A stretch of DNA of 64,000 bases from an uncultured Candidatus Binatia bacterium. GTDB lineage: Bacteria > Desulfobacterota > Binatia > UBA9968 > CAXXLF01. A model generated the notes under the pieces. That model saw only the letters and a program-made list of their open reading frames with translations, was not told where the DNA came from and ran no database searches. The stretch covers positions 235,316 to 299,315 of the forward strand of contig CBDCDW010000005.1 in assembly GCA_965215595.1 (NCBI GenBank), in the 5' to 3' direction. Below, in pieces: positions 15,680-63,434 of the stretch; positions within the stretch are counted from its first letter, which is position 1; each line of letters opens with the position of its first letter. The position numbers were made by a program, and so were the translations under genes.

Positions 15680-15829
15680 AATCGGATAGGCTGTAAACCA
15701 ACTGAATTAAATCTGGGGGAAACGGCGCGCCGACGTCTCTTATGCCTTAAGCACCTGCTTCCGGGCCAGAACTTTTTCTCCTCTGAGAAAAGAATGTTAC
15801 TTATATGCACCGAAAGCATAAGCCCTCTT

Positions 15830-20750: not shown

Positions 20751-20806
20751 TGCCTGGACTGACCCCCTGCAGTTGGACAGTTTGAGGGAGCAGGTTAGAA
20801 TGCCTG

Positions 20807-23346: not shown

Positions 23347-23398
23347 GCGCCTTCCTCCCGGTCTTTTCTGACCTCTGATTTCTGATCTCTGACCTCTA

Positions 23399-24421: not shown

Positions 24422-24586
24422 AGCCCCACACAGTGTGAATGTAACAACGAAGGCGACAATCCCCGTCCATTTTGGTCCGCGGGGCCGCTTTTTGATTTTA
24501 GATTATTCTCGGACAGAGACTTGTTGCGCATTGTGTTCTCCATTTTTCTTCTCCTTAATCAAAAATCCAAAATCGCCAATCCAAAA

Positions 24587-34973: not shown

Positions 34974-36134
34974 TTAATCCCTGAGGATGCTGCCTGCGGT
35001 TGTGGCTATGCACTTGGCATTATCAGGGTCCCGCTTGATTCCTTTTGGATCTCTACCTTCTTTAACTGTGTCTATGGCTTCGCGCAAAATCTTTCGGAAC
35101 ATGAGCACGCCTTGGTCAGAAGTCACGTGGTGTTCTAGCGCATGGATCGCAATTGGGCCTTGCCCTTCCATGGCCTCCTTGTCATCAGGAAATCTCTGGG
35201 TGTGTTCATAGCTTCTATCCTGTCTGCTGGCGGGAGCCAGTTTTTCACGTCCAGACATTTCTTGTGGGTCTACATCTGCCGGAATCCACCGAATCGAGGC
35301 TCCAAGTTGGTGCGTGTCATCTACCGGTATGCAATAAGATACAGCGCGGATTTTCTCCGTCTTGGGTTCATCAGTGTAAGTTAAATGTATGTTCAGGGGC
35401 ATAATCATTTCCCAAATGACATCCCACCATCGACCATCAGCAAGCTTCCGAGTCATAACAAATCGCATGCCCATATCGGTCTCTTCGTATTTGATTTCTT
35501 GCGGCATGGAAACATACGAATCAGACGGAAATTGTGGACCGCTATGGGCCGTGTGAAGCCATTGAGTATGGAGCGCATCCATGAGATTTTCTTCGCTCTG
35601 CAACCAATTACAGTTTATTGCTCCGCCTATTCGGGGACCCATTCTGACTCTCAATTTGCCGCCTTCCTTCATCCAGACATCGTATTTCGGTAGTTGAGGT
35701 ATTTTCTCCAGGGGTCCCATATACGCGAAAACCATGCCTCCAAATTCCTGGACGGGATAACATGGATGTTTGATTTGTTCCTTAAAGGCGCTGCCAGGAG
35801 GCTCCAGGGGCATATCCAGAATGTTGCCCTCAACGTCGTAAAGCCATCCGTGGTAACAGCAACGAAGTCCTTGATCTTCAATGCGGCCGTACTCTAAAGA
35901 AGTGCCGCGGTGGCTGCAACGGAGGAACAGCAGACCCGGTCGACCCCCTGCATCACGAAAGGCCACAAGATTTTCACCCAGGATCCGGACACGTTTGGGC
36001 AGGTCTTTCAAATCCTGCGAAAGACAAACAGGTTGCCAGTATCGTCGCATGAGCTCTCCGCAAGGAGTCTCAGAGCCCACATGGGTTAATTCTGGATCTT
36101 CTCTGGGAATCCGAAAACGGTAGGCGCTTCTCAT
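34974..36134 (-). CDS. Rieske non-haem iron ring-hydroxylating oxygenase, alpha (large) subunit
   Basis: Rieske motif CSHRGTSL...CCYHGW (CxH-N17-CxxH) in the N-terminal third. The C-terminal catalytic domain has conserved His/Asp (DALHTQWLHTAH). Confidence 0.8.
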   Translation of the reverse strand: MRSAYRFRIPREDPELTHVGSETPCGELMRRYWQPVCLSQDLKDLPKRVRILGENLVAFRDAGGRPGLLFLRCSHRGTSLEYGRIEDQGLRCCYHGWLYDVEGNILDMPLEPPGSAFKEQIKHPCYPVQEFGGMVFAYMGPLEKIPQLPKYDVWMKEGGKLRVRMGPRIGGAINCNWLQSEENLMDALHTQWLHTAHSGPQFPSDSYVSMPQEIKYEETDMGMRFVMTRKLADGRWWDVIWEMIMPLNIHLTYTDEPKTEKIRAVSYCIPVDDTHQLGASIRWIPADVDPQEMSGREKLAPASRQDRSYEHTQRFPDDKEAMEGQGPIAIHALEHHVTSDQGVLMFRKILREAIDTVKEGRDPKGIKRDPDNAKCIATTAGSILRD

Positions 36135-47723: not shown

Positions 47724-48392
47724 TTACTCCGAACGTACTTTCGTTGTCATAGATTGATTCTTCATCGCGGATAGTGAAAATTGGGTGATGTGTTGAGCCA
47801 GCTTTTCAATATTCTCCACAGAAAATTTCTGCATGGAGTACAACCGGCTGATTACCGCCCTGGAATGGTGATAGAAGCCGCATTGACTCACCACGCTCAA
47901 CATGTTCAGACGAACCGATTCATCATCAGCTTCAGGCCCAAGAAGCTCCCGCACAATGGACTCCAGTTCCTGACTCAGCGGTCGAATGGCTTCTTCCACA
48001 ATCACATCAAGGGCGGGTGATGGTTCGATCAACTCTCGTGCCGCCAACTTCATATGCCAGTTTGGACGTCCCTCACTCAAGAGTCGATTTAGCAACGATC
48101 GAATGAAGGCATGAAGCCTATCGTCCGCGCTGGCCCCGCGTTTCAAACCGAGACTTGGGGGATACAGATCCGTAGCGGTGGAATGCAGGTAGCGCATCAC
48201 CGCAAGGTACAGGCCGTCCTTGTCCCTAAAGTAGTAATTCACCGCGGCAAGGTTCGCCCTGGCCTTTTCGCAGATTTGCCGTACCGTCGCGCCGCGATAA
48301 CCATACTCGGCAAAGATTTCACCCGCCGCCTCCAGAAGACGTTCCTCTGTTCCTAAACTATTGGCAGAATCTGTCCGTGCTTCCTTAATCAT
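47724..48392 (-). CDS. TetR/AcrR-family transcriptional regulator
   Basis: N-terminal HTH LLEAAGEIFAEYGYRGATVRQICEKARANLAAVNYYFRDKDGLY, then a ~150-aa helical ligand-binding domain. Confidence 0.8.
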   Translation of the reverse strand: MIKEARTDSANSLGTEERLLEAAGEIFAEYGYRGATVRQICEKARANLAAVNYYFRDKDGLYLAVMRYLHSTATDLYPPSLGLKRGASADDRLHAFIRSLLNRLLSEGRPNWHMKLAARELIEPSPALDVIVEEAIRPLSQELESIVRELLGPEADDESVRLNMLSVVSQCGFYHHSRAVISRLYSMQKFSVENIEKLAQHITQFSLSAMKNQSMTTKVRSE

Positions 48393-48591: not shown

Positions 48592-49731
48592 CTAAGGAAT
48601 GACCGTACTCTTTTGCTGTGTTGATTGACGATAATTTATGGGGGCCATTCCAATCTGGATTCCTTCCTTTGCCAATTCCGCTTCGTATATGGATCGGACT
48701 TCGCGCGGTTCATCCTCATGCTCCATAATGTGACCACCTTCCAGTTCGCTGGTGGTGGGCAGCCAGGTGGTTCCCACACCGCGGAGGCCGCTACGAAGCG
48801 CGAGATGTCGGGCCGGTTCCTTGCTGGTAGTGAAATGGGAATGGTACCACCCTTCGGGAGGAACCAGCAGACTACCCTTGCGCCAGTCAACTTTAACGAA
48901 CTCTCCGCCCGGCGGCCACATGAGACTGTATCCCTTACCACCCAAAACGACCACTTGGGCCCCCGGGCCATGTCGGTGAGGTTTTCTGTACGTCCCGCTT
49001 TCGATTTGCATGATATGGCCAATCATCGCAGTGTTATTGGAACCACTGATTCCGAGGCGACTGAAACCTGCACCGCGGGTGGGATATTTAGTCAGTTGTA
49101 CCGCCTCAGCGTCAGGAATAAAGTTGACCGATGTGTCTTCCAAAATTCCAGGTTTCATTTCGGCACTAAAATAATCGCTCTCTCCTGAAAATCGATCGGC
49201 AAATTCATAGGGTGCATTAAATATAAAATCGGCCGAGCCGTAAACGTTGAAGATCATCGGCGCGTTGTTGGCCGCCACAAACCGCACTGCCTCCGATGCC
49301 GAGCCATTGAAGTGCTGAAATTTGGTGTTCAGAGGCGGGGAGAAGATGCTACCGGGTTGCCACTCCACGGTGGTCGCTTGATTGGTCCTGTCACACCAGA
49401 TCTGGGTGGCCCCATGACCTTCTAGAATGAGAATCAATTCCTCATACATATGACGCATGGGCTGTAGGCTCTGCCCTGGGGGAATCTCCGCCACCAGGGA
49501 ACCCACCATTCCCTGAGATCCCGCGAGATGACAGTAGGCAGCAGGACCTCCAAGCCGGTCCCAGGGTTTCAATGGCGCGGTGCGCAGATCCTCCACCCCG
49601 TATCCAGTGATTACGGAAAGTCCCTCGTCCTCACAAAACTTTAAAAATTGAGACTTTACCAGGAACCTGCTTTTCGCCTCCGCCTCTAGATCCGCTAATG
49701 ATCGGTTACTCGTCTTTGAAACAACTGCCAT
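48592..49731 (-). CDS. Bicupin-like protein (gentisate/1-hydroxy-2-naphthoate-dioxygenase-like fold), assignment tentative
   Basis: Two cupin-like blocks (…HMYEELILILEGHGATQIW… and …GWYHSHFT…). Its length is ~380 aa, typical of bicupin dioxygenases. Confidence 0.45.
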   Translation of the reverse strand: MAVVSKTSNRSLADLEAEAKSRFLVKSQFLKFCEDEGLSVITGYGVEDLRTAPLKPWDRLGGPAAYCHLAGSQGMVGSLVAEIPPGQSLQPMRHMYEELILILEGHGATQIWCDRTNQATTVEWQPGSIFSPPLNTKFQHFNGSASEAVRFVAANNAPMIFNVYGSADFIFNAPYEFADRFSGESDYFSAEMKPGILEDTSVNFIPDAEAVQLTKYPTRGAGFSRLGISGSNNTAMIGHIMQIESGTYRKPHRHGPGAQVVVLGGKGYSLMWPPGGEFVKVDWRKGSLLVPPEGWYHSHFTTSKEPARHLALRSGLRGVGTTWLPTTSELEGGHIMEHEDEPREVRSIYEAELAKEGIQIGMAPINYRQSTQQKSTVIP

Positions 49732-49926: not shown

Positions 49927-50523
49927 TTATCCGGTGGTACGGGGTTTACCCCAGTAATCGGGATGCTGAAGCACTGCATTGACAAAGGCCTCTTTCATGG
50001 GCCGGCCAGAGGTAACACGCGGATCCCTTTTAATCCGTACTGTCTCTGCGTCAACCTTGACTACCAAGAAATGCGGCCCTGGTTCCTTTACCGCCGGCTG
50101 TACGATCCTGATGAACTCGTCCAAGGTCCGGATAGTTGCGGTCTTTTGGATTCCCGCACCTTGGGCCATCTTTTCCAGGTCCGTCCGCCGGGAGGTGAAC
50201 GTGGGCCCCATCCGCGCATAGGATTCATTGTCAAATACAAGGACCATCAAGTTGGTCGGATTGGCATCCGCCATGGTGATCAGAGCGCTGGTATCGATCA
50301 TCAGGCTTCCATCGGAGTCCAGGGCAATAACTTTTCGCTTGGGAAAGGCAAAACTAAGCCCCACAGAAAACCCGACGGTGAGTCCCATGTTCCAGGCATA
50401 GAAGTTTACCCCCTTTTCTCGCAGGTTGGGCCATATGGCCGAGTTGGATGATAGGCTGGTTACCACAGGGTCGTTCACATCGACCCATTTAACAAGATGT
50501 TCGAGGCATTCAAGGCGATTCAC
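49927..50523 (-). CDS. TPP-dependent decarboxylase, beta subunit (sulfopyruvate/phosphonopyruvate decarboxylase ComE-like; PP-binding domain)
   Basis: ...NPTNLMVLVFDNESYARMG... is a TPP/Mg-binding GDG-N-type region. It overlaps the alpha-subunit gene by 4 bp. Confidence 0.65.
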   Translation of the reverse strand: MNRLECLEHLVKWVDVNDPVVTSLSSNSAIWPNLREKGVNFYAWNMGLTVGFSVGLSFAFPKRKVIALDSDGSLMIDTSALITMADANPTNLMVLVFDNESYARMGPTFTSRRTDLEKMAQGAGIQKTATIRTLDEFIRIVQPAVKEPGPHFLVVKVDAETVRIKRDPRVTSGRPMKEAFVNAVLQHPDYWGKPRTTG

Positions 50524-51035
50524 CAGAGCACCTCCCCCGTTAAAAGCACCACCACTGGCGAGTGATAATCATGGGCGGCAAAATTGGCATCCCGAAGGGT
50601 ACGCTGCAGATCGCTTTTTTTGTTCACCACCCGATATGGGAGCTGGAGAGCATTCAAGAGCGGCTCAGCCACCTGTTTGAAAAGTAGAAGCTGGGAACCG
50701 GGAACACCGCTGTGATCACCCATATCCCCCCGGTATGAGGCCAAAATCAAAAACGGAATTCCGTAGCTGATTGCAGTTGACTGTGCTAGCGCCCAGGTAC
50801 CCACCATAAGGCCGGCGATGCCAGTAACAAAAACAACCTTTCGTCCCCCCAGTGCAGCCCCCGCACAGAGGGCTATGCCGTTTCCTTCCGCGGCCACCGT
50901 AAGGGAAGTAAAACTCGAATCCTTGCGTATGGCCTCAGTTAGGGAGGAAGTAGGCTCCTCCGGCAGGGTCACAACCATATCGATCCCTTCTTCCTTGAAG
51001 GTCTCGATAATCAACTCACCTGAATCTTGATGCAT
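50520..51035 (-). CDS. TPP-dependent decarboxylase, alpha subunit (ComD-like; Pyr domain)
   Basis: ...AAEGNGIALCAGAALGGRKVVFVTGIAGLMVGTWALAQSTAISYGIPFLILASYRG is a typical pyrimidine-binding domain of two-subunit TPP decarboxylases. Confidence 0.65.
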   Translation of the reverse strand: MHQDSGELIIETFKEEGIDMVVTLPEEPTSSLTEAIRKDSSFTSLTVAAEGNGIALCAGAALGGRKVVFVTGIAGLMVGTWALAQSTAISYGIPFLILASYRGDMGDHSGVPGSQLLLFKQVAEPLLNALQLPYRVVNKKSDLQRTLRDANFAAHDYHSPVVVLLTGEVLW

Positions 51036-51257: not shown

Positions 51258-52667
51258 CTAACGTCCCTTTCCTGTGGAAGGCCCCAGAGAAATTCCATAA
51301 CGATCCCATTCACGGCTCACCTTTTCCACGGCCTCCGGAGCCGGCTGACACACGGCGGGAAAATCTTTGGCGTTGTATCGAGTCGCGTCGATGATCATCT
51401 TGGAGCAACGTGCCGGCCCTGCCTGTTCTTCAGGCGGTAGGGACGGATCCAAAAAGATACCCGTCACCTCGCGCAGGATCTCCACATCCCGATGGGCCTG
51501 AACACGTGTGGACACCGCCCACTCCACTGCCAGCGAGTCAGTTGGGTCCACGTCATGGTCCACCACGGTCACATGTTTAATGTGGCGGCCACTGGGTGAG
51601 CCCAGCACGGCCATGCCAACCATCTTGCCGTATCCCTCGAACAGTTTTTCCACAGAGATTACGGCATGAAAGACACCACATCCACCTTCCGGGAGATGGA
51701 TCCCTTTGACTCCCGGCAGCTTGATGGCGCGCAGGATCTCCGATTCCTTTCCCACTGCTGTTAGCACATCCGTCTCATGGGGAGGCGCCCCCTGATACGC
51801 CAGGTGCTGGATGAAGTTCTTGCGATGCGTGATTGCAGTAACGTGAATGGTCGAGCGTGGCAGTCTCGGCCCGCCGTAGTGACCGGTAAACTCGCCGAAG
51901 GGGCCCTCCTCCCGCTTTTCAGCCGGCCTTACCTCTCCTTCGATCACCACCTCGGCATCGGCAGGCACCTCCAGGGGGACCGTCTTGCAAGGTACAATTT
52001 CGATGGGCTTGCCACGCAGGGCACCTGCCATGGCAAGCTCGTCGGCTTCAAAGGGAAAGGGGGAGCATGCAGCCATGACTACCCTTGGATCAGCTCCCAT
52101 GACGATGGCCACTGGGAACGGTTCGTTGGGCGCGGTACGGTGCTGCAGCATAATATGAGTGTAAGGACCGGAAAGGAGGCCCAAAGTGTGCTTGTCATGA
52201 ACCATGTTGCGATAGACCCCCACATTGCGCTCACCGGTGGTCAAGTCCCTGGTGATGTGACAAGAAAGGGTAAGGTAGGGACCGCCGTCACGGGCGTTCA
52301 GTATGGGCGCGATGAGCCGGTTCAGGTCCGCCTCCTCCCCCAGCCAAACCTCTTCCTGACATTTCCCGCTCTCAACCATTATAGGAGGCAAAGGGTTACT
52401 TGCCCGGCGGTTCCACTCCGCGTGCATCTCTTCCTGCTTGCACTGCATGGCCATTGCGTAGCGGCGCCGGGTTGCCAACAGGTTGATGACCACCGGGATA
52501 TCCCTTCCTCCCGGTTTTTCGAAAAGCAATGCCGGACCGTAATTCTTCAGGCTTTTGACGCAAACAGCACCAAACTCCTGGTTCAGATCCACAGGTATCT
52601 TCACCCGTGCAAGCTCTCCTTCTTTTTCCAGCAAGTCTATGAACTCACGCAAACCATTAAAAGGCAT
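51258..52667 (-). CDS. UbiD-family (prFMN-dependent) reversible aromatic-acid decarboxylase/carboxylase, paralogue 1
   Basis: MPFNGLREFIDLLEKEGELARVKIPVDLNQEFGAVCVKSLKNYGPALLFEKP has the same N-terminal architecture as E. coli UbiD. A UbiD-typical Gly-rich loop with Glu follows (...EGPFGEFTGHYGG...). 469 aa. Confidence 0.8.
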   Translation of the reverse strand: MPFNGLREFIDLLEKEGELARVKIPVDLNQEFGAVCVKSLKNYGPALLFEKPGGRDIPVVINLLATRRRYAMAMQCKQEEMHAEWNRRASNPLPPIMVESGKCQEEVWLGEEADLNRLIAPILNARDGGPYLTLSCHITRDLTTGERNVGVYRNMVHDKHTLGLLSGPYTHIMLQHRTAPNEPFPVAIVMGADPRVVMAACSPFPFEADELAMAGALRGKPIEIVPCKTVPLEVPADAEVVIEGEVRPAEKREEGPFGEFTGHYGGPRLPRSTIHVTAITHRKNFIQHLAYQGAPPHETDVLTAVGKESEILRAIKLPGVKGIHLPEGGCGVFHAVISVEKLFEGYGKMVGMAVLGSPSGRHIKHVTVVDHDVDPTDSLAVEWAVSTRVQAHRDVEILREVTGIFLDPSLPPEEQAGPARCSKMIIDATRYNAKDFPAVCQPAPEAVEKVSREWDRYGISLGPSTGKGR

Positions 52668-52704
52668 AGATTCCTCTCCCTAATCCTCGTTATGCGCGCC
52701 GAGT

Positions 52705-53814
52705 CTAACGAGGCATGACTTTTTTCAGCAGACCAACCACCTGTTTCCGCCGTTTTACAAAGGACTCATCGGAAGTCACCGGGAACTGGTTGTTCTCCTT
52801 GGGCACCAAGATGTTCAACACATGTTTAGTTGATACATCCTTTCGCATGGATGGAACACCGGCACCCTTACTCCAGCTGAGTTGACCCTCGCGGGAAAGC
52901 ACAAAGTCGAGGTAGACCCTGGTGGCGTTAGGATGGGGAGCATTCTTTACCACCGAAATGTTGCCGGCCCCCGCGGTAATGTAGGTGCCTTCTTTTATGG
53001 TATTTGGATCCGCCTGCTGGAGTGGTATTCCCTTGCCAACCATTTCCGTGGTCAAGACATCGCTGGGGCCAATGGCAATGGGATATTTTCCCTTTCCCAC
53101 AAAGTCCAAAATCTGGCGGTCGTTCCTAGAAACGACCAGGTTTTTTGCTAATTTCCGAATAAAGTTCGCACCCAGTTCATCATTAAAATACCAGAAGGTG
53201 GCCGTGCCGAGGCCTCCACCTGGTCTTGTGGGATCGCGAATAACGATTTTTCCTTTCCACTTGGGATCCAGCAAATCCTTCCATGAGGTTATTTCACCTG
53301 CGGACACCATCGTCGGATTGAACACGAAAGGCGCCTTTACATAAGCGCTCATCACCAGCGTGTATTTCCGGGCAGTGTCCGAGAATTTCATCTCTCCTCC
53401 ACGCCATTTCGACGGGTCCTTTGTATTGGGTCCACTGAGATAAGGTGTGATTGGCACGATGGCACCCACCGGCAATAGTCCCGTAAGTGCCGTGGTGGAG
53501 CCTCCGATAAAGATGTCCGTCAGGAATTTCCTCGCCCCATGTTCGTTTAGCATCTTGGGTAGAACTCGTGAGCCTCTCATACCGCTGAATTCCACCTGAA
53601 TTTCTGGATACTTTTTATTAAATTCCAGGGTCAGAGCATCCTTGGTCCAGGTACCCTGGGGCCCAATAATCACCACCCGTCCTTCTTTTTTCGCTGCTGC
53701 CACCACTTGCTCCCAATCGGAAGCAGCCTGTGCTGTGGTGGCAACAAACGAAACAATAGTTGCCGCAAACAATATTGCCGCCACCAGAATGATTGGGAGA
53801 ATGTTCTTCTTCAT
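52705..53814 (-). CDS. Periplasmic family-1 (Fe3+/polyamine-type) ABC substrate-binding protein, orphan (no permease/ATPase nearby), embedded between two UbiD genes
   Basis: Signal peptide MKKNILPIILVAAILFAATIVSFVATTAQA, then an SBP core. It is paralogous to the partial gene at 1-651. Confidence 0.6.
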   Translation of the reverse strand: MKKNILPIILVAAILFAATIVSFVATTAQAASDWEQVVAAAKKEGRVVIIGPQGTWTKDALTLEFNKKYPEIQVEFSGMRGSRVLPKMLNEHGARKFLTDIFIGGSTTALTGLLPVGAIVPITPYLSGPNTKDPSKWRGGEMKFSDTARKYTLVMSAYVKAPFVFNPTMVSAGEITSWKDLLDPKWKGKIVIRDPTRPGGGLGTATFWYFNDELGANFIRKLAKNLVVSRNDRQILDFVGKGKYPIAIGPSDVLTTEMVGKGIPLQQADPNTIKEGTYITAGAGNISVVKNAPHPNATRVYLDFVLSREGQLSWSKGAGVPSMRKDVSTKHVLNILVPKENNQFPVTSDESFVKRRKQVVGLLKKVMPR

Positions 53815-53896
53815 GTTCATGCCTCCTAACCATAGATTAATAACCGATGATATTCGAATTCGGGTTTCCATCTTCAATTGGATCTAAATTTCATCA

Positions 53897-55543
53897 TCAA
53901 CGTCCGATGACGATATTTTTCTTTTCAGTTTCAGCTGTAACCTTCTTCTGACGCTTCGCCGTTGTCTCCCCAACTTCCCGATACTTTCCTTCCACAATGA
54001 GCTTGGCAAATACATCGTTATCCTTGGTCCAGTTTCCTAGACTGTACCCATGCCATGGCTCCCGCAGCCTTGGTTGCGGCAGTTCGCTATGTTCGGCCCA
54101 CATGGCCATGGCTCGCTCCATGTATTGCTTGTCCGGCAAACCTACCGGAGGGTAAGCCCACTTTCGCGTTGCATTAAATAACAACCGGCTGTGGTGGTAG
54201 TTCTGCAGCAACGAAGAGCCATAAACCATCTCACCGTGTCCTGAACCCGGCGGTGTCCCCGACGGATCCAATGCCGGATTGCGACCATGAACCACCTCCA
54301 CATCGAGCTCAGGACGGCACCGGTAGGCCATGGCCCAAAGCATCGCATCCTTGTCCCGAACGTCGATATCATTGTCCACGAGGACGATGTACTTTGATCC
54401 CCCCATCAACCCCGCTGCGGCATGGAGAACCGTCCAGGGGTCCACTCCCCTCTGGCTCCGCAAGCGAATGAGACACCACTCGCGTCCACCGGCGCTATCG
54501 GGAAAGTGGATGTCTTCGATGGGATAGCCCGCCCCGTAGTAGAGGTGATCGTACAGCATGGTTGCGTAGGTATAGCTCAAGATTGTGTTGGAGTCGCTAG
54601 GATACATTCCCACCGTTATGGGTGTAAATATTGCGTTATTGCGGTGAGTAATTGCGGTCACCTGGATCACCGGAAAGTAGGTAGATTCAGTTGACATATA
54701 ACCCGGATACTCGCCAAAGGGTGTCAACTCTTCTGTGGTCTCGGTGGACATGAGCCCTTCGATAACGATCTCAGCCGATGCCGGTACCTCCAGGGGGATC
54801 GTCTTGCACTTTACCAACTCCACCGGCTCACCCATGATTCCACCGGCCACTGCTAGTTCGTCGTATCTCCCATAGGGGATCGGTGCCGAAGCTACGATCA
54901 TGACAACGGGAGTGGATCCTACGATGATGGCCACTGGCAATGGCTCCTTACGCTGTCTCGCCTTTGGCCAGTGATAGGCCATGGCATCGTGAAAAACCGC
55001 AGAGCCCGATACGATCCGATCTCGGTCGCGGAAAAACCCGTTATAGGCTCCCAGATTGCGCATGCCCGTCTCGGGATCTTTCGTGAGCATGGAGGTGCCG
55101 GTACGAATCATGCAGCTAAATCCGGGTTCTTCCACCGGAGCCGGCAATTCATCCAAGCCCAATTCCTTAAGCTCTTTGCCGGTATGCACTTCTTCGTGTA
55201 CGGGACCATCTTTGACAATCACCGGATCAATGGGATGCGCCATGCCCTCATGCCAACGGTCCATAGCTTCCCGAATGGACTCGCAACCCAAACCCCACGC
55301 AACAAAATCCGTCGCGGCACCGTAAACTCCTGCCGCAACTCTCATTGGAAAACGTTTGCCGTTGGCTCCCCGCACGTTTTCGAACAGCAGGATCTTCCGC
55401 TCTTCTTCAGGGAGGCCACGCATCTCAACCCGGAACAGCGGCATCAACTCCGTTTCTTTATTGACTGGTTCCGTGAACGTATGAAGCCGACCTCGGCGTT
55501 GTACTTCGGCCATGAACTCCCGAAGATCCTTGAAGTACGCCAT
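53897..55543 (-). CDS. UbiD-family decarboxylase/carboxylase, paralogue 2 (divergent, ~549 aa)
   Basis: MAYFKDLREFMAEVQRRGRLHTFTEPVNKETELMPL..., ...EELTPFGEYPGYMS... and GGSKYIVLVDNDIDV. The track ORF begins 22 codons further upstream. Confidence 0.75.
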   Translation of the reverse strand: MAYFKDLREFMAEVQRRGRLHTFTEPVNKETELMPLFRVEMRGLPEEERKILLFENVRGANGKRFPMRVAAGVYGAATDFVAWGLGCESIREAMDRWHEGMAHPIDPVIVKDGPVHEEVHTGKELKELGLDELPAPVEEPGFSCMIRTGTSMLTKDPETGMRNLGAYNGFFRDRDRIVSGSAVFHDAMAYHWPKARQRKEPLPVAIIVGSTPVVMIVASAPIPYGRYDELAVAGGIMGEPVELVKCKTIPLEVPASAEIVIEGLMSTETTEELTPFGEYPGYMSTESTYFPVIQVTAITHRNNAIFTPITVGMYPSDSNTILSYTYATMLYDHLYYGAGYPIEDIHFPDSAGGREWCLIRLRSQRGVDPWTVLHAAAGLMGGSKYIVLVDNDIDVRDKDAMLWAMAYRCRPELDVEVVHGRNPALDPSGTPPGSGHGEMVYGSSLLQNYHHSRLLFNATRKWAYPPVGLPDKQYMERAMAMWAEHSELPQPRLREPWHGYSLGNWTKDNDVFAKLIVEGKYREVGETTAKRQKKVTAETEKKNIVIGR

Positions 55544-56029
55544 GGTTTCCCCTTCCTTGCAGTTTAAGTGATACTTTCCACAAACCCGCGTGAACCACCT
55601 ACGACACAAAAAATTACCGTAAGAATTTCCCAGGACGGGTTCTCAACTTAGGTATGCTCAAAAGGTCATAATATAGTTGCCCAGGTGTGTCAAACTGACA
55701 AGCTAGTACAAGTGGTGTTCGATACATGTTACATCAATAACTGCGAAGATTGCTTCCTCTTGACAAATGGAGCCTCGTCCTCGTAGTTTCTGTAATGACG
55801 AAACACCCAAAGGGTTCATGATCATGGATGACTACGGTTTATTGACCCGCACGGGACGGGGACTCCTTGTGGCAACCAACGGTATAATCCCGAGCTCTCT
55901 GGACTGGAGGGAGTATTGTCGCATTCTGGTTGCCGAAGACCGAGATTAGGTTGGTAGACCAGCCATTACGAGAACCGCAAGCTAAATCATTCAGAGACAG
56001 CAGGTGAGCAATGCGGAAGGAGTTTTAGC

Positions 56030-57256
56030 ATGGCAGATGTTTTAAGGTTAGGTATCGTGGGCTTGGGAATGGGAGCTGGTCGGGTCATACCAGAGATCGC
56101 TCATCTACCCTACATCAAATTGACTGCGGGTGCCGACCTTCGTCCACACGCGCTTAAACAGTTCCGCGAAGAGTTCGGCGCACAGGGGTATCAGAGTGTG
56201 GAAGAAATGTGCCAGAGCCCGGATGTCGACGCAGTTTATGTTTGCACGCCACATAATTACCACTGTGAGCATACGATCACCGCACTGAAAAACAAAAAAC
56301 ACGTCATTGTGGAAAAGCCCATGGCCCTATCCATTGAAGAATGTGAAGCCATGAACCAGGCAGCCGAGGCAAATGGGGTCAAACTCCTATGCGGTCATAC
56401 CCACAGCTTCGATCCGCCAATTCAAAAGATGGCGGAAGTAATTCGCAGCGGCCAGTTGGGTCGAACACTGATGATCAACAGTTCCTACTACAAAAACTTT
56501 ATTTACCGACCGTTTTCAGATCAGGATGTGGGCATGAGCCGGGGTGTAGTCTTGAACCAGGGGCCCCACCAGGTGGACATCGTACGTCTGTTAGGCGGTG
56601 GCATGGTCCGAAGCGTTCGGGCCATGGCTGGAGTCGGTGATCCTACGCGAGGAGAACCCAGACCGGCAGAGGGGCACTATATTTGTTATCTCGAGTTTGA
56701 AAATGGAGTGCCAGCAAGTTTGGTATTTAGCGGGTATGCCTACCTGGACACTGCCGAACTCGTCTGGGGCATCGGTGAGGGAGGACAGCCGGTTGATCCC
56801 CAGTCCTTCGTCAATGCCCATCAGTTTTTCAAGGAAGTCGGCACCGGATCGGAACGCAAAAAGAAAATGGAGCAGCTCCTGGAATCATGGCGGTATGGGG
56901 GAACTAACGTTGGCGAGTGGTTCCGTAGCGGCAGTTCGGGTCAGCTACCAGGGAAGCGACATCAACCCTTCTTTGGGCTTAACATTGTGACCTGCGAGAA
57001 AGGCGATATTCGTCAATCGCCGGATGGAATTTACCTATACACCGACCAGGGACGGAGCGAGGTCCCCATACCTGCGGGCGCCCATGGCCGGGAGGCTGAA
57101 ATACGTGAGCTTTACGAAGGAGTAGTGAACGGCCACCCTGTGTTCCATGATGGCCGGTGGGGTGAGGCCACACTGGAGGTTAGTTTGGCCATTCTCCAGT
57201 CAGCAGAGGAAAGACGAGAGATTTCGATGTCTCATCAAGTGGCAGTACCGAACTAG
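56030..57256 (+). CDS. Gfo/Idh/MocA-family NAD(P)-dependent oxidoreductase
   Basis: Rossmann start LRLGIVGLGMGAGRV, then ...AVYVCTPHNYHCEHTITALKNKKHVIVEKPMALSIEECEAM is the family signature (EKP motif). Confidence 0.8.
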   Translation: MADVLRLGIVGLGMGAGRVIPEIAHLPYIKLTAGADLRPHALKQFREEFGAQGYQSVEEMCQSPDVDAVYVCTPHNYHCEHTITALKNKKHVIVEKPMALSIEECEAMNQAAEANGVKLLCGHTHSFDPPIQKMAEVIRSGQLGRTLMINSSYYKNFIYRPFSDQDVGMSRGVVLNQGPHQVDIVRLLGGGMVRSVRAMAGVGDPTRGEPRPAEGHYICYLEFENGVPASLVFSGYAYLDTAELVWGIGEGGQPVDPQSFVNAHQFFKEVGTGSERKKKMEQLLESWRYGGTNVGEWFRSGSSGQLPGKRHQPFFGLNIVTCEKGDIRQSPDGIYLYTDQGRSEVPIPAGAHGREAEIRELYEGVVNGHPVFHDGRWGEATLEVSLAILQSAEERREISMSHQVAVPN

Positions 57257-57297
57257 AAAGAACCTGAACACTAGCCATTCAAAAGAGGAGCATTTGA

Positions 57298-58740
57298 ATG
57301 ATTCCTGACCTGAGGAAGTTCCTTGAGAAACTTGAAGCTATAGGAGAACTGAAGCGAATCAGTGGCGCAGACCTGAAATTTGAAATCGGCGCCATTTCAG
57401 AACTCGCCTTTCAGAACCACGGACCGGCCCTTCTGTTTGACCGCATCAATCAGTATCCGCCCAACTACCGAATCGCATCGAACGTTTGCAGCACAAAGAA
57501 GAGATCGTTGCTGGCCATAGGCATGGACCCTGAGTTAACCGAGGACGAGGCAATGACGCGGTTCAAGCGGAGATGGGATGACTACAAGCCCATTCCCCCG
57601 GTGAAAGTCCATAGCGGCTCAATGATGGAAAACATTCAAAATGGCGAAGAAGTGGACCTCATGAAGATCCCGGTGCCCGTCTGGCACGAACTGGATGGCG
57701 GTCCTTATATTGGTACAGGATTAGCCGTCATTCTGAAGGACCCGGATATAGGCTGGGTCAATCTGGGGAGCTACAGGCTTCAACGTCATGACCGTTACAC
57801 AACGGGTGTTTTCAGTGAGCCGGCCAACGATGGAACCAAAATAATGCAGAAATACTGGGCTCAGGGTAAAGCCTGTCCCGTGGCTGTTTCCCTGGGTCCG
57901 GAGCCGATCATTTTTTTGACGGCTTCAGGCAGTACCGGATGCCCCAAAGGCGTTCCGGAGTATGACTATGCAGGCTTTCTCCTGGGAGAACCCATCCCTA
58001 TTGTCGAAGGACCTTTGACTGGCCTGCCCATTTCTGCGAATTCTGAGATCGCAATTGAGGGAGAGATACCACCACCGCAAGCTGAGTCGAGACCTGAAGG
58101 TCCATTTGGTGAATGGACTGGTTACTACATGGGTGGCTCTGTACCTGAGCCGGTCATTCGGGTAAAGGCACTGTACCATCGAACTGATCCCATTCTTTTC
58201 GGCGCCTCACCATTGAAGCCCAATGAAGAAGCCTATTCCTTCTCTCTTCCGATGATCTTAGTCACCGGGATCTTGAGTCGTTTACAGAAACAGGGAATAC
58301 CCGTCCGCCGCGTTTCCAATCCGGTGAAGATGGGGGTAACTGTAATTACGATTCAGCAACAAGAAAAAGACGACGTGGAGCGGGCCATGAAAGCCATCGA
58401 TAAAATTCCGGGACCTCAGCGGCTTTTTATCCTCGTGGACGACGACGTTGATCTTGAGGACCCTCGGGACGTCTTGTGGGCCGTCACCACGCGCTATGAT
58501 CCCACGACGGGGGCTCGGGTCAGTACGATAGAAAGTGAATGGCTATTGGATCCATTACGTAAGGTAGAAGAGAGAGCACAGCGACCGTCTCTTCCTTACA
58601 AGCGACTCATCTTGAATGGCTGTCGTCCTTTCGATCGCATAAAAGATTTCTCCGCGGTAAACCTGCTAAGTAAGACGAGGCGCGATGAGACGTGGAGCAA
58701 GTGGCAGATGGAAAAGTGGGCCTCTCGTCCAGTGAAGTAA
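57298..58740 (+). CDS. UbiD-family decarboxylase/carboxylase, paralogue 3 (480 aa)
   Basis: MIPDLRKFLEKLEAIGELKRISGADLKFEIGAISELAFQNHGPALLFDRI, ...EGPFGEWTGYYMGGS... and ...LFILVDDDVDLEDPRDVLWAV. Confidence 0.8.
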   Translation: MIPDLRKFLEKLEAIGELKRISGADLKFEIGAISELAFQNHGPALLFDRINQYPPNYRIASNVCSTKKRSLLAIGMDPELTEDEAMTRFKRRWDDYKPIPPVKVHSGSMMENIQNGEEVDLMKIPVPVWHELDGGPYIGTGLAVILKDPDIGWVNLGSYRLQRHDRYTTGVFSEPANDGTKIMQKYWAQGKACPVAVSLGPEPIIFLTASGSTGCPKGVPEYDYAGFLLGEPIPIVEGPLTGLPISANSEIAIEGEIPPPQAESRPEGPFGEWTGYYMGGSVPEPVIRVKALYHRTDPILFGASPLKPNEEAYSFSLPMILVTGILSRLQKQGIPVRRVSNPVKMGVTVITIQQQEKDDVERAMKAIDKIPGPQRLFILVDDDVDLEDPRDVLWAVTTRYDPTTGARVSTIESEWLLDPLRKVEERAQRPSLPYKRLILNGCRPFDRIKDFSAVNLLSKTRRDETWSKWQMEKWASRPVK

Positions 58741-58757
58741 TATGAAGGGAGTTAATC

Positions 58758-60206
58758 ATGGGGCACAAGTCTTTAGGCGAGTTTATTGAAGCGGCTCGGG
58801 CCATTGGCGAGGTGAAAAATGTACACGGTGCCGCTCTTGAAATGGAGGTCGGCTGCTTGACTGAACTGTCAGCCGAACAAAATGGGCCAATGCTGCTTTT
58901 CGACCAATTTAAGGGTTATCCAGATGACTTCCGTGTGGCCAGCAACGTCGTTCGAAACAGTCGACGCCGATATGCGTTGGCCATGGGTCTCCCGGTAGAT
59001 GCCCATGCCATCGAAATGGTCAAGCAGCTAAGAGAACGGCGAAAGAGGAAAGAGCCAACACCTCCAGTTCTGGTAAAAGATGGACCCATCCTGGAAAATA
59101 TACTTTCCGGTCAAGATGCGGATGTCGGGAAATTCCCCGCACCTAAGTGGCACTCAGAGGACGGCGGGCACTACATTGGGACGGGGGACATTGTTCTCAT
59201 GCGTGACCCGGATACTGGGTGGGTTAATTTTGGCACCTATCGCGCATGCGTGCAGGGACAGAATCTAATAAGCATCTGGATCATCAAGCATAAACGGGGC
59301 CGCATCATAGCTGAAAAGTACTGGGCCCAGGGTAAGGCATGTCCCGTGGCTGTGGTCCTTGGATGTGACCCGTTAACCTTTATGGCTGGAACAAGCCGTT
59401 TGAAATACGAAGAGGCAGGGGCCCTTCACGGTGCACCGGTTGAAGTTGTAAAGGGGCCACTCACAGGTCTTCCCATCCCTGCCCATGCAGAGATCGTCCT
59501 TGAAGGGGAAATTCCTTCGCCCGACGAGGAGACTGCGGTGGAAGGACCCTTTGGTGAATGGCCAGGGTACTACTCCCACACCGGGCCGGAATGCGTGGTC
59601 CGAATAAAGCAGATCGCGCACCGTAGCTCTCCGATTATTAACGGCAACCCACCATTGAGACCCTTGCTCGGATTACGTGACGATCTGCCGTCAACTGCTG
59701 TAAATATGTGGGATCACCTGGAAAACTCTGGTATCTCTGATGTCGTCGGAGTCTGGGGGTTTTGTAACTCACTTATGATAGTTATCTCGTTGAAACAGCG
59801 CTACGCGGGCCACGCACAGCAGGCACTCCTGGCCGCGGCTGGTTTGCGCAGCTCGGCCAGTATGAATACTTACTTTGTGGCAGTGGACGAGGATATTGAC
59901 CCCTCCGCGTTGAACGATGTCGTTTGGGCGCTATGCACACGAGTGAATCCTGCCACCGCCCTGGACGTACTCCATAATGCATGGACAAGCGACCTGGACC
60001 CCAGATTGACTCCGGAGCAAAAGTCCTCGGGTGACTACACCATGGGGCGTTTATTGATCAATGCTTGCAAGCCTTTTTCGTGGAAGGATTCCTTCCCCAA
60101 GACAAATATTTTCTCCACCGAGGAACGCCGGCAAGTCGCAGAACGATGGGGTAGTTTATTAAGTGAAATCACAAGTTTATCAAAACGATCCACACCCCTT
60201 GGATGA
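58758..60206 (+). CDS. UbiD-family decarboxylase/carboxylase, paralogue 4 (482 aa), 18 bp downstream of paralogue 3
   Basis: MGHKSLGEFIEAARAIGEVKNVHGAALEMEVGCLTELSAEQNGPMLLFDQF, ...EGPFGEWPGYYSH... and ...YFVAVDEDIDPSALNDVVWAL. Confidence 0.8.
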   Translation: MGHKSLGEFIEAARAIGEVKNVHGAALEMEVGCLTELSAEQNGPMLLFDQFKGYPDDFRVASNVVRNSRRRYALAMGLPVDAHAIEMVKQLRERRKRKEPTPPVLVKDGPILENILSGQDADVGKFPAPKWHSEDGGHYIGTGDIVLMRDPDTGWVNFGTYRACVQGQNLISIWIIKHKRGRIIAEKYWAQGKACPVAVVLGCDPLTFMAGTSRLKYEEAGALHGAPVEVVKGPLTGLPIPAHAEIVLEGEIPSPDEETAVEGPFGEWPGYYSHTGPECVVRIKQIAHRSSPIINGNPPLRPLLGLRDDLPSTAVNMWDHLENSGISDVVGVWGFCNSLMIVISLKQRYAGHAQQALLAAAGLRSSASMNTYFVAVDEDIDPSALNDVVWALCTRVNPATALDVLHNAWTSDLDPRLTPEQKSSGDYTMGRLLINACKPFSWKDSFPKTNIFSTEERRQVAERWGSLLSEITSLSKRSTPLG

Positions 60207-60325: not shown

Positions 60326-61375
60326 ATGAGATTATATAAAGCAAGCACGATATGCGCCTTGGCGATTTTTCTTGCGATGGTATTCGCAATGATATCGCAG
60401 CCTGCGGTATCAAATGCCTTCACCGAAGGCAAAACTGTTCGCCTTCTGGTCTTTGCCACTCCGGGTGGTGGCTACGACTATTACTCTAGGTTAGTCATGC
60501 GTTACATCCCAAAGTATCTTCCTGGCAATCCAAAAATCCTCGTTCAGAACATGCCCATAGGATATTTGGCCGCCAACACCCTTTGGCGATCCAAACCCGA
60601 TGGCATTACGTGGGGCGTATTGGGCCAGGAAGGCTAACTAAACAATATTGCAGGTGAGAAAGCGCAAAAGTACGATTTCAGTAAAGGCATTTCCATTGGC
60701 AGTATTGCAGATGAAAATACGCTAATCTATATCCGTACCGACAGCTGGATATCTTCTTTGAAAGATCTGGCCGCCGCGATTAAGGCGGGAAAGAAGCGTC
60801 CCATTATGGGTGGCACCACCCGGTCAGGTTCGAGTTATGTTATGGGGGAGGTCTTGGAGTATTTGTCACCGAATATGAAGTTTAAACAGGTCCTGGGTTA
60901 TCCTGGCGGTTCTGAGGTGGACCTGGCGATCCGAAGGGGGGAAGCCCAGGCGGCCGGGCGTAGTAAGAACTCCTTCTTTTCGCGCATGAGCGATATCTAC
61001 AAATCGGGCGAAATCGTAGTCATCTTGCAAACCGGCACTGTCGACGGAAAACGCGACCCAACTTTCGAGAATGTGCCCACCCTTGGAGAGTTCGCCGACA
61101 GCAGTGACGATAAGGCACTCCTAAATCTGGTGCTCCTTAACCAGATTGTTGCAAGACCGTTCTGGCTGCCACCAGGAGTACCCCAGGATAGGGTGAAGTT
61201 AATCCGGGAGGCCTTCCGTAGGACGGTCAATGATCCCAAGCTAGTTGCGCAGGCCAAGAGGTCCCGGCGTCATATTGGACCCGTATACGGTGACCAAGTG
61301 GCCAAGCTGTACGCAGAAGCCTTCGCTGCGCCCGAGAGTGTTAAGGAGCGCATAAGAAAGATCCTCGGAAAATAG
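60326..61375 (+). pseudogene. TctC-family (Bug) substrate-binding protein interrupted by an in-frame TAA at 60635-60637
   Basis: ORF 60326..60637 (signal peptide; FATPGGGYDYYSRLVMRYIPKY) and ORF 60758..61375 are in the same frame. The intervening 120 bp is open in that frame (LNNIAGEKAQKYDFSKGISIGSIADENTLIYIRTDSW...). A single TAA stop separates them. Confidence 0.6.
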
Positions 61376-61405: not shown

Positions 61406-63434
61406 ATGTCTATTTTTGATGCCTCTACCGCTGGTCTAATCGCCGTCTTTCAGTATCCCGCGTTTCCCCTGATGCTCCTGGGGATCGTGATCGGATTTAT
61501 AGTGGGGTTATTGCCGGGATTAGGGGGAGCGACAACCCTCGCCTTGATGCTCCCCTTTATCTACGATATGCCACCCATCGCCGCATTTGCCTTTCTCTTA
61601 GGGATGCATTCGGTCACGTCGACTACCGGAGATATCACCTCGGTCCTCTTTGGGAGAGGGAACGGCGGCAGCTACCATCGTTGACGGTCACCCCATGGCC
61701 AAAAAGGGAGAGGCTGGTAGGGCCCTTGGGGCCGCCCTCTTCAGTTCTTTGGTTGGAGCGGTGATCGGTGCCTTTGTTCTAGCCGCCTCCATTCCCATCA
61801 TTACGCCACTGGTGCTTGCCCTGGGTTCGCCTGAATTCTTCATGTTGGCCATACTCGGCATAAGCTTTATTGCCGCTCTAAGCGGAGGTTCGTTGACTCG
61901 TGGGCTGATCGCTGGCTGCACGGGATTGCTGTTGGCCACCATCGGTCTGGATCCACGAACCGGTGCCATGCGGGTTGGTTTCGATATGCCTTACATGATG
62001 AGTGGCATCAGCCTGGTGCCGGTGGGTATCGGGTTGTTTGCTATTCCTGAGATTATCGACCTGGCCGTGCGAGGAACAAGTATCGCCGAGACCAACGTGG
62101 GCAAGCTTGGTGGGGTATGGGAGGGGGTCAAGGATACCTTCCGGCATTGGGGCGTCACTCTTCGATGCAGCCTTCTTGGCACATTCATCGGTATCATCCC
62201 GGGGTTGGGAGGCGGCGTGGCGCAGTGGATCGCTTACGGACATGCGGTGCAGAGTGCAGACGACAAGAGTCAGTTCGGGAGAGGCGATGTGCGCGGCGTG
62301 CTGGGACCGGGGGCAGCGAATAACTCCAAAGAGGGTGGGAGCTTGATCCCCACCATAGCCTTTGCCGTACCGGGAAGCTTGAGCATGGCCATCCTCCTCG
62401 GTGCCTTCTTGATCTTGGGTCTAAATCCCGGTCCGGAGATGCTAACAAAGGACCTGAATATTACCCTCTCCATGGTTTGGGTGATCGTCATCTCCAACAT
62501 CATTACCGTCCTCATCAGCCTGGCCTTCCTGGATCAGCTGGCGAAGATCACCACCGTACGGGGTGTTCTATTGATTCCCTTCCTCCTGATGCTGATCTAT
62601 CTCGGCGCCTTTGCGACCAACAACCACATTGGCGATATGATCATGATGGTCCTGTTCGGCCTCTTAGGTTACATCATGGTCTTGTTTCACTGGCCTCGTC
62701 CACCGCTGGTTTTGGGATTGGTATTGGGCCACCTGGCGGAGAACTATCTCTTTATATCTGCCAATATTTACGGCGCTAGAATGATGATACAACCGGGGGT
62801 TATTATCATTTCGATTTTGATCATAGCCGCCATTGTTTATCCGCTCTATCAGAACCGGCGCGATAAACGTGCGGAGGATGCCAGCCAAACCTTAACCCCG
62901 GAATCCGAGCAGACCTCATCTGCCAAGCCCAAAAGCAGTGTGAATTTTCACTTCCAACCAAAACTGGTGGTCAGCCTTGCGTTTGCTACATTTACAGCTT
63001 TCTTCTTATGGGCAGGAAGGGATTGGCCCTTCGAGGCACGACTTTTTCCTTGGTTTGTTGCCATTCCGGCCCTTGCGTTGTCGTTGTTGGAGTTCGGCCG
63101 TGACTTAACAACCGCATCAGGAAAAGCAAGGGGCCAAATTCTCGATTTTCAGTTTGCCGAGGGTATTGACCCCGCTGTGGCCCGTCCACGAATGCTCAAC
63201 ATCCTGTCTTGGACCCTGGGCATACTTGCCGCGGTGTGGCTGGTGGGAGTCGAAATTACCATGACCGGTATGACCTTTGCCTATCTAAAATTCCAGGGCG
63301 GAGAGCGCTGGGTCATTACTCTCGTTCTGACCCTCATCGCCTGGTTGTTCGTACGTCTCCTCTTTATTGAATTTATGCATCTCCCCTTCCCCGAGGGAAT
63401 CATCATTGAAGGCATCCGCAGCCTATTTGAATAA
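61406..63434 (+). pseudogene. TctA-family large permease with C-terminal TctB-like extension; frameshift around 61650-61684
   Basis: ORF 61406..61684 (MSIFDASTAGLIAVFQYPAFPLMLLGIVIGFIVGLLPGLGGATTLALMLPF... is the TctA N-terminus) and ORF 61650..63434 (...TAAATIVDGHPMAKKGEAGRALGAALFSS... continues TctA) overlap in different frames. The C-terminal ~150 aa after the TctA core are hydrophobic and TctB-like. Confidence 0.6.

Follow-up and report, generated by a model that had tools for sequence, protein, structure and literature searches.

Four UbiD-family paralogues in a Binatia genome, apparently part of an oxygen-dependent aromatic-acid catabolic island

Introduction

What are four genes of the UbiD family doing within 9 kb of one bacterial genome? 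The question is raised by a stretch of 64,000 nucleotides (nt) from an uncultured soil bacterium of the Candidatus Binatia (assembly GCA_965215595.1, contig CBDCDW010000005.1). This whole stretch is called the window below; the four genes, here labelled U1 to U4, lie between its positions 51258 and 60206. To our knowledge, UbiD enzymes, which work with prenylated flavin mononucleotide (prFMN), are sought as catalysts for reversible (de)carboxylation, and only a handful has been characterised. An earlier note on this DNA had compared the two adjacent genes with the alpha and beta subunits of phenylphosphate carboxylase (PpcA/PpcB) and with the carboxylases of anaerobic benzene and naphthalene degraders, and had thought of a new multi-subunit system, for instance for a phthalate-type acid. 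Our analysis leads elsewhere. The region is probably part of an oxygen-dependent catabolic island for aromatic acids, in which the UbiD proteins would act as separate prFMN enzymes.

Four proteins of four subfamilies

That four UbiD-family genes are present, as had been read from the letters, is correct. All are full-length, and each product passes the curated Pfam gathering cutoffs for UbiD_N, the Rift-related UbiD and UbiD_C. U1 (51258-52667, minus strand) is a UbiD-family decarboxylase of 469 amino acids (aa). U2 (53897-55543, minus strand) is a divergent UbiD-like protein of 548 aa; its open reading frame (ORF) extends mechanically to a TTG at 55609, and the ATG at 55543 is favoured by homologues of 548 aa. 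U3 (57298-58740, plus strand, 480 aa) is a UbiD decarboxylase of a distinct clade, and U4 (58758-60206, plus strand, 482 aa) belongs to the PhdA clade, where it represents what we call the K-type. The latter two genes lie on the same strand with a gap of 17 nt. Since the mutual identity of U1-U4 is only 25-38%, they are old paralogues, not recent duplicates.

Not one of the four reaches an NCBIfam equivalog cutoff, be it that of PpcA, PpcB, VdcC, E. coli-type UbiD, menaquinone decarboxylase or BagN. With the PpcA model (TIGR02723, alpha, cutoff 565) all score at or below 178 bits, with the PpcB model (TIGR02724, beta, cutoff 469) the best score is the 261 bits of U4, and the VdcC model (cutoff 650) yields 195-314 bits. 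The generic subfamily TIGR00148 (cutoff 245) is passed by U1 alone (352 bits); U2 scores 214 bits.

A simple explanation would be that U1-U4 are housekeeping decarboxylases of quinone biosynthesis, i.e., paralogues of UbiD or MqnL. The IMG database does name several of the cluster mates '4-hydroxy-3-polyprenylbenzoate decarboxylase'. The idea is, however, effectively refuted: the scores are 119-236 bits with the E. coli-type UbiD equivalog (NF008175, cutoff 788) and 145-268 bits with the menaquinone decarboxylase of the MqnL type (TIGR03701, cutoff 496), the identity to E. coli UbiD is 25-34%, and the genes sit amid catabolic and transport genes. They are not decarboxylases of ubiquinone or menaquinone synthesis and, as had been suspected, match no characterised cluster.

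The tree was built by neighbour-joining with 100 bootstraps. Its references were PpcA, PpcB, PpcD, PpcG and UbiX of Azoarcus sp. KH32C, Pcd of A. aromaticum EbN1, VdcBCD of Pantoea, and UbiD and UbiX of E. coli. U4 and its close homologues group with PhdA, the phenazine-1-carboxylic acid decarboxylase of M. fortuitum (bootstrap 100). The same superclade holds U3 with its orthologues as a clade apart (bootstrap 100). PpcA and PpcB fall outside this superclade, with identities of 29-36%. U2 and its homologues have a clade of their own (bootstrap 100) that is weakly attached to Pcd (bootstrap 76, 25% identity).

Among solved structures, U4 matches PhdA (PDB 7PDA) with 520 bits and about 50% identity, and its AlphaFold2 (AF2) model, with a predicted local distance difference test (pLDDT) of 87, reaches a template modelling (TM) score of 0.86 to 7PDA; U3 matches the same protein with 317 bits and 36% identity. 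The best solved match of both U1 and U2 is HmfF, the 2,5-furandicarboxylate decarboxylase (6H6V), with 244 and 140 bits, respectively, and U1 shares with it a canonical active site. These scores are, however, well below the orthologue level as given by U4 and PhdA (520 bits), the locus has neither an hmfG/ubiX partner nor a gene of a furan pathway, and U2 has neither the catalytic Arg nor the first Glu. VdcBCD does not fit either: the VdcC cutoff is missed and homologues of VdcB and VdcD are absent from the window. Judged by their sequences, U1-U4 are paralogues from four different subfamilies; by analogy with PhdA and HmfF, each of them is probably a homo-oligomer.

A conserved front end of oxygenase and dehydrogenase

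The company of the UbiD genes is best seen in relatives, whose loci in other genomes and metagenome contigs are numbered L0xx; long metagenome-assembled contigs contain copies of these proteins that are identical or nearly so. The gene directly upstream of U3 codes for a GFO/IDH/MocA oxidoreductase (56030-57256, plus strand, by Pfam), as had been noted before. The product matches a Comamonas enzyme (PDB 7WZD) with 266 bits over residues 4-399, IMG labels its cluster mates 'phthalate 4,5-cis-dihydrodiol dehydrogenase', and copies with 49-60% identity adjoin Rieske and UbiD genes in 11 other loci. In L002 (OZ244621.1), the chromosome of a Candidatus Binatia metagenome-assembled genome (MAG) with 95% protein identity and the same gene order as the window, and also in L039 and L052 (the three loci being 77-95% identical), an intact Rieske gene of the LigXa_C type (433-436 aa) lies between U2 and the MocA gene. 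The operon there reads Rieske, MocA, U3, U4, TctC, TctA, the last two being genes of a tripartite tricarboxylate transporter.

Around genes of the U3, U4 and U2 types, the same set recurs in more than 20 loci of Binatia, Chloroflexota and 'Deltaproteobacteria' MAGs: a LigXa_C Rieske oxygenase, a MocA dehydrogenase, a bicupin, an alpha/beta hydrolase, a LigB or extradiol dioxygenase and DmpFG, furthermore solute-binding proteins (SBPs) of the family found in the window, an ABC ATPase and a fused permease. U3 stands directly downstream of Rieske and MocA, in some cases with a bicupin, in L002, L039, L040, L052 and L055; the core that varies least is Rieske, MocA, (bicupin), U3 (L040, L055, L039, L052). 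From the recurrent gene set and its constant core we infer that import is followed by dihydroxylation, re-aromatisation, decarboxylation by prFMN enzymes and, finally, ring cleavage.

The pathway might run as follows. An aromatic carboxylate or dicarboxylate would be imported by TctC/TctA, in the intact form that the relatives have. The Rieske enzyme would dihydroxylate the imported acid, and the MocA-family dehydrogenase, acting like a cis-dihydrodiol dehydrogenase, would re-aromatise it to a dihydroxy-aromatic acid. U3 and U4 would then remove the carboxyl group or groups, be it in succession or on alternative substrates, and the product would proceed to ring cleavage by the bicupin or by a nearby extradiol dioxygenase with its hydrolase. 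The genes on the minus strand may constitute a second module, in which decarboxylases are combined with receptors for uptake, and prFMN would be supplied via a ubiX gene elsewhere in the genome.

The canonical aerobic route of phthalate breakdown uses a Rieske dioxygenase, then a dihydrodiol dehydrogenase and finally a decarboxylase; a review of 2026 mentions UbiD-like enzymes only for the anaerobic, coenzyme A (CoA)-dependent route (PMC13040137). The order in the relatives, i.e., alpha-only Rieske, MocA dehydrogenase and decarboxylase(s), resembles the phthalate 4,5-dioxygenase pathway with its Rieske phthalate dioxygenase, cis-4,5-dihydrodiol dehydrogenase and 4,5-dihydroxyphthalate decarboxylase. 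It differs in that the decarboxylation would be left to prFMN/UbiD enzymes, two instead of one, and in that the Rieske enzyme is of the LigXa_C type and deleted in the present genome. The earlier idea of a new system for a phthalate-type acid is thus consistent with the context, but the system appears aerobic, consists of separate paralogous enzymes and has lost its oxygenase here. As far as sequences can tell, what is new is the combination of prFMN decarboxylases with a front end of Rieske oxygenase and dihydrodiol dehydrogenase, and the presence of two uncharacterised subfamilies, which differ from the known ones in the metal site (U4) and in the catalytic network (U2). The locus and its relatives stand for large, unstudied UbiD radiations in soil Binatia, Chloroflexota and 'Deltaproteobacteria' that are tied to aerobic pathways of the Rieske/dihydrodiol-dehydrogenase kind.

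Several points weigh against an oxygen-dependent island of this design. The reaction order is drawn from gene order and homology alone. Rieske enzymes of the LigXa_C type include O-demethylases and monooxygenases, which makes the dihydroxylation step uncertain. The oxygenase gene is deleted here, and this clouds the present substrate of U3 and U4 in the strain. In U2 the first Glu and the catalytic Arg are missing, in U4 two metal ligands; because of these losses, either may not be a conventional decarboxylase. The bicupin, finally, which is cast as a possible ring-cleavage enzyme, gives a generic fold match only. This metalloprotein of 379 aa (48592-49731, minus strand; Pfam Cupin_2 and Cupin_1) found no match in a sequence search of the PDB. 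Its AF2 model (pLDDT 91) has MncA, the oxalate decarboxylase OxdC and vicilins as best folds, with a TM score of about 0.47, so that it can be called a generic bicupin only, and the conserved His residues are confined to the C-terminal cupin. Homologues with 31-41% identity occur in loci between L006 and L048 and recur beside UbiD, Rieske and MocA genes. Its assignment as a gentisate dioxygenase was considered and found unsupported, there being no PDB sequence match and only generic fold matches.

An anaerobic route is unlikely

The earlier note had looked in the direction of anaerobic degraders. U2, or others of the four, could act like phthaloyl-CoA decarboxylase (Pcd), with aryl-CoA thioesters as substrates, as happens in phthalate degraders that live by denitrification or sulfate reduction. 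In the neighbour-joining tree, the U2 family goes with Pcd of A. aromaticum EbN1 (bootstrap 76), and Pcd, the gene of which resides on plasmid 2, departs from the EGPFGE motif like U2 and likewise lacks its first Glu. The identity of the two is, however, 25%, and Pcd retains the catalytic Arg. Every known anaerobic phthalate cluster has UbiX (PMC13040137), and Pcd clusters carry UbiX and a CoA transferase, whereas the window contains neither of them nor a CoA ligase. We therefore rejected the link between U2 and Pcd as a basis for a functional assignment: the identity is low, the status of the Arg differs and CoA genes are lacking.

The negative part of this argument was covered by two kinds of search, and it agrees with what had been noted from the letters. 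In the rest of the 64-kb window, ORFs of 150 aa or more were scanned with Pfam and revealed no flavoprotein/UbiX family, and tblastn of the window with UbiX/VdcB, VdcD, PpcD, PpcG, phenylphosphate synthase and CoA-transferase gave only E > 0.1; UbiX, phenylphosphate synthase and small gamma or delta subunits are indeed missing from the window. Among the 40-odd environmental relative loci, UbiX was found in L034 only, and small Ppc subunits or phenylphosphate synthase in none.

The neighbours, in contrast, depend on O2. The window holds an HpaB-like monooxygenase, a dienelactone hydrolase, an Amidohydro_2 protein, a Rieske/VanA_C oxygenase and a 2-oxoglutarate oxygenase, furthermore an extradiol-type dioxygenase of the glyoxalase fold with an alpha/beta hydrolase and a luciferase-like monooxygenase. 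Conserved neighbours that need O2, such as Rieske enzymes, extradiol dioxygenase and monooxygenases, do not agree with the analogy to anaerobic carboxylases, and we consider a CoA-dependent anaerobic route very unlikely.

Are U3 and U4 subunits of one enzyme?

Two UbiD proteins of about 53 kDa encoded side by side call to mind PpcABCD of Thauera and Azoarcus and the anaerobic benzene and naphthalene carboxylases. The position of the His ligand is variable in PpcA and PpcB, too. There the likeness ends. The U3/U4 locus has no gamma and delta subunits, no phenylphosphate synthase and no linked UbiX, the equivalog cutoffs are missed, PpcA and PpcB branch outside the superclade of U3 and U4, and the setting is aerobic. 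The proposed analogy to the alpha/beta pairs of these carboxylases is not supported.

U3 and U4 could still join, as the large subunits, in a hetero-oligomeric UbiD-type (de)carboxylase that is not necessarily a homologue of Ppc. The genes are 17 nt apart on one strand, and in the metal site either protein shows a conserved change of its own. Two further observations favour such a partnership, and hence speak against separate enzymes. Six of the eight loci that contain a K-type U4 contain an intact U3 orthologue, too, and a seventh has remnants of U3. This co-occurrence was counted from the side of the K-type U4; a metagenome scan with U3 yielded 4 loci, and L053 and L055 break off short of where a U4 gene could lie. 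Moreover, U3 and U4 diverge in parallel, the pairs of identities (U3/U4) being 94/95, 87/89, 76/77, 68/64, 61/68, 61/64 and 60/62%.

There is more on the other side. In L040, L041, L043 and L046 the orthologues of U3 and U4 are 4-8 kb apart, with transporter and hydrolase genes between them, and only in Binatia are they adjacent. The P0170 locus has a K-type U4 without U3 within +/-10 kb. UbiD genes are paired differently in different genomes: U3 with U4 here, a U3-like gene beside U2 in L047, a U4-like beside a U1-like gene in other Binatia. Both U3 and U4 retain the full catalytic set of R, E and E, PhdA as the nearest characterised relative is a homohexamer, neither protein groups with PpcA or PpcB, and small subunits are found neither in the window nor in the relative loci searched. 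A joint enzyme is therefore improbable, and we read U3 and U4 as two separate enzymes of one pathway. For annotation, this calls for caution: adjacent UbiD genes alone are no evidence for a multi-subunit carboxylase of the Ppc type.

Damaged genes beside enzymes under purifying selection

The Rieske gene that relatives have between U2 and MocA is reduced in the window to a remnant of 41 codons (55824-55949, plus strand; LigXa_C type) in a spacer of 420 nt. Relative to L002 it has suffered an in-frame internal deletion of about 1.13 kb: window 55400-55876 aligns with L002 5502-5976, and window 55867-56200 aligns with L002 7106-7438. The remnant thereby fuses the N-terminal MDDY.. to the C-terminal ..VATNGIIPSSLDWRE.

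The transporter genes downstream of U4 are also broken. The earlier note had listed them as TctC/TctA(B) uptake genes; they are present, but both are disrupted. The TctC-like binding-protein gene (60326-61375, plus strand) is inactivated by an in-frame TAA at 60635-60637, where L002 has TAT (Tyr), and both halves remain in one frame. The halves are without a Pfam match, and their identity derives from the character of the sequence and from tblastn matches of 34-44% to genes of TctC regions (L018, L048). The TctA gene (61406-63434, plus strand), which has a C-terminal membrane extension, is split by a frameshift around 61650-61684 into ORFs of 92 aa (61406-61684) and 594 aa (61650-63434); Pfam TctA positions 3-64 lie on the first and 67-423 on the second. 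In L002 it is one intact ORF of 678 aa.

L002 has its own lesions, namely a TGG to TAG change in the SBP gene (2808-3917) and a frameshift in TctC (11537-12621), a few codons past the site of the TAA in the window. The transport genes of two closely related genomes have thus been hit independently, the neighbouring enzyme genes being intact.

Selection on the enzymes was estimated from the ratio of nonsynonymous to synonymous substitution rates (dN/dS) against L002, with dS of 0.4-0.5. It is 0.05 for U2, 0.06 for U3, 0.05 for U4 and 0.04 for MocA. These four genes are under strong purifying selection.

Is the cluster, then, a decaying relic, its pathway dead in this strain and its UbiD genes out of work? 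The internal deletion of the Rieske gene, the nonsense codon in TctC together with the frameshift in TctA, the abundance of insertion sequences in the window and the different lesions of L002 (nonsense in SBP, frameshift in TctC) all point that way. On the other hand, U1-U4, MocA, the SBP and the genes of the thiamine-diphosphate (ThDP) enzyme described below are all intact ORFs. The low dN/dS of 0.04-0.06 for U2, U3, U4 and MocA speaks against decay, too, although it is an average over the whole divergence and so leaves room for a very recent relaxation. Further Rieske genes are available in the genome, at 34974-36134 and past the window end. We consider the relic unlikely. Because of the Rieske deletion and the broken TctC and TctA, the original pathway is nevertheless probably incomplete in this genome.

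Unusual active sites

The residues of the active and metal sites were mapped via the motifs NxGxYR and EGPFGE and via fixed spacings to AnFdc1, PhdA and E. coli UbiD. In AnFdc1 the relevant residues are N168, R173, H191, E233, E277 and E282; Asn168, His191 and Glu233 are ligands of Mn2+, which, together with a monovalent cation, holds the phosphate of prFMN (PMC4947166). The E(D)-R-E triad, i.e., E277, R173 and E282 in AnFdc1, is described as conserved across the UbiD family (PMC8988006). The catalytic residues of PhdA, a homohexamer, are R159 and E269.

A check of these residues had been recommended; the E-R-E triad turned out to be intact in U1, U3 and U4 but not in U2, which is without the Arg and the first Glu. 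U1 is canonical at all metal and E-R-E positions (N148, R153, H171, E210, E254, E259). U3 keeps R160, E267 and E272 and has N155 and E221 at the positions of the Asn and Glu ligands. At the His position it has D178, and Asp is found there in all its orthologues. We had taken this loss for a defect and dropped the idea: among representatives at 50% identity the column shows D, Q or N in several lineages, and PpcA and PpcB are also without the His.

U4 keeps N157 and the catalytic R162, E262 and E267, of which R162 and E267 correspond to R159 and E269 of PhdA. Its metal site is remodelled: Arg180 replaces the His ligand, Lys216 replaces the Glu ligand, and 5-7 residues are deleted directly before Lys216. 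The remodelled segments are modelled by AF2 with pLDDT of 85-91. The 121 homologues of U4 split into 57 of the K-type (at least about 62% identical to U4) and 64 of the E-type, PhdA included. The K-type has Lys at the position of the Glu ligand in 57/57 and His at its ligand column in 5/57; the E-type has Glu and His, respectively, in all 64. EGPFGEW is invariant in 119/119 homologues. U4 thus resembles PhdA in clade, catalytic Arg and the Glu equivalent to E269. It differs by Arg and Lys instead of the canonical His and Glu ligands, by the missing loop before the Glu position, by the lack of an adjacent UbiX gene and by its context of Rieske and dihydrodiol-dehydrogenase genes. The identity is about 50%, the cofactor site is remodelled and the genes around it are others; the substrate of PhdA can therefore not be transferred to U4.

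In U2 the metal ligands (N163, H185 with D186 at the column, E229) and E278 are kept, yet N168 stands at the position of the Arg, a residue that prFMN maturation needs in Fdc1, and L273 at that of the first Glu. A C-terminal extension of about 80 aa is added. N, S or T replaces the catalytic Arg in 115/115 aligned homologues, and none of the commonest motif variants listed has the first Glu. In most members of the family, an 'EPR' motif precedes the lost Glu at a distance of two residues.

It is possible, and we put it forward tentatively, that two uncharacterised subfamilies break rules of prFMN enzymes that have so far been taken for universal. The K-type clade of U4 would bind the phosphate of prFMN without Mn2+ and K+/Na+, and the Arg-less family of U2 would either run a different prFMN reaction or have relocated its Arg, for which the Arg of the 'EPR' motif may be the candidate. 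A literature search of incomplete coverage retrieved no paper on K-type or Arg-less UbiD proteins, and nothing that links Binatia with UbiD or deals with sequence similarity networks of UbiD/prFMN proteins. If K-type proteins do bind prFMN without Mn2+ and K+, they would offer a simpler holoenzyme for biocatalysis and a natural experiment on cofactor binding. The Arg-less family is a test of whether the E(D)-R-E network is obligatory. If either case proved true, the UbiD family would have a wider chemistry or more modes of cofactor binding.

The two gene rows and their binding proteins

The genes are arranged in two divergent rows. The plus-strand row comprises MocA, U3, U4, TctC and TctA; the minus-strand row comprises U2, the SBP, U1, a split ThDP decarboxylase, the bicupin and a TetR-type regulator. 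Over 47.5-63.6 kb, sigma-70 promoters and terminators were no more frequent than in shuffled sequence, and a search with the sigma-54 consensus gave 22 matches versus 18.8 expected, none of them in the intergenic regions of the cluster.

The periplasmic SBP (52705-53814, minus strand; Pfam SBP_bac_1/6/8/11) lies, as had been seen before, between U2 and U1; it has a signal peptide. Its nearest solved structures are weak matches to binders of Fe3+, pyridoxal phosphate and 2-aminoethylphosphonate. The window contains no ABC permease or ATPase gene for it. It is not the orphan insertion it was taken for: in all loci examined (L002, L039, L047, L048, L052), the gene after that of the U2 type codes for an SBP of the same family. 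Related clusters have up to 12 such SBPs and one ABC importer, which suggests that the arrays are receptor-enzyme modules tuned to different aromatic acids.

PhdA-clade UbiD genes are also found inside arrays of 5-12 paralogous SBP_bac_1/8/11 genes in L012-L014, L019-L021, L024, L031, L033 and L035 (e.g., L020:1-21407). These loci come from soil MAGs labelled delta proteobacterium, Syntrophobacter, Chloroflexota or Thermoleophilaceae; their SBPs are 30-38% identical to that of the window, and they also carry several LigXa_C Rieske oxygenases, a MocA dehydrogenase, bicupins and one fused ABC permease. Within the window, another SBP gene of this family (36-45% identical) is cut by the window start (7-651, minus strand) and adjoins the HpaB-like flavin monooxygenase gene at 756-2207.

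Downstream of U1, the split ThDP-dependent 2-oxoacid decarboxylase is encoded by an alpha half with the N domain (50520-51035, minus strand; Pfam TPP_enzyme_N) and a beta half with the ThDP-binding C domain (49927-50523, minus strand; Pfam TPP_enzyme_C), the two genes overlapping by 4 nt. Against the NCBIfam models of sulfopyruvate decarboxylase both stay below the cutoff, the alpha half with 84 bits (cutoff 148) and the beta half with 90 bits (cutoff 221). The TetR/CecR-type regulator (47724-48392, minus strand; Pfam TetR_N and CecR_C) ends the row; a TetR gene also adjoins the TPP genes in the relative L052.

The wider window and its flanks

On the source contig, about 7-11 kb downstream of U4, a fifth UbiD copy is split into pieces of 160 and 336 aa; a Rieske/LigXa_C gene and one for a luciferase-like monooxygenase stand next to it. 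In L002, six UbiD genes share 21 kb, the further ones being in 15771-21390. The extra genes here and in L002 suggest that the family has expanded in this lineage. Another assembly codes for identical U1-U4; two uncharacterised genes follow U4 in it, and after them come integrase, AlpA and Toprim/primase genes, with no TctC/TctA there. A mobile element has probably integrated at this point.

Insertion sequences abound in the window. A DDE transposase of 487 aa (DUF772/DDE_Tnp_1_6) is encoded twice, with near-identical Pfam scores and in inverted orientation, at 29572-31035 (plus strand) and 33362-34825 (minus strand). The two copies flank an IS200-like/helix-turn-helix ORF (31882-32592), and the Rieske/VanA_C gene at 34974-36134 abuts one of them. 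Binding-protein genes elsewhere in the window appear fragmentary: a TctC piece of 241 aa with a partial profile match (12613-13338, minus strand) and three ABC_sub_bind ORFs at 22327-25678 (minus strand), one of which spans profile positions 90-292 only. This fits widespread pseudogenisation in a region rich in insertion sequences. At 9431-11446 (minus strand), a single ORF of 671 aa combines two domains, one of squalene/phytoene synthase and one of polyprenyl synthetase.

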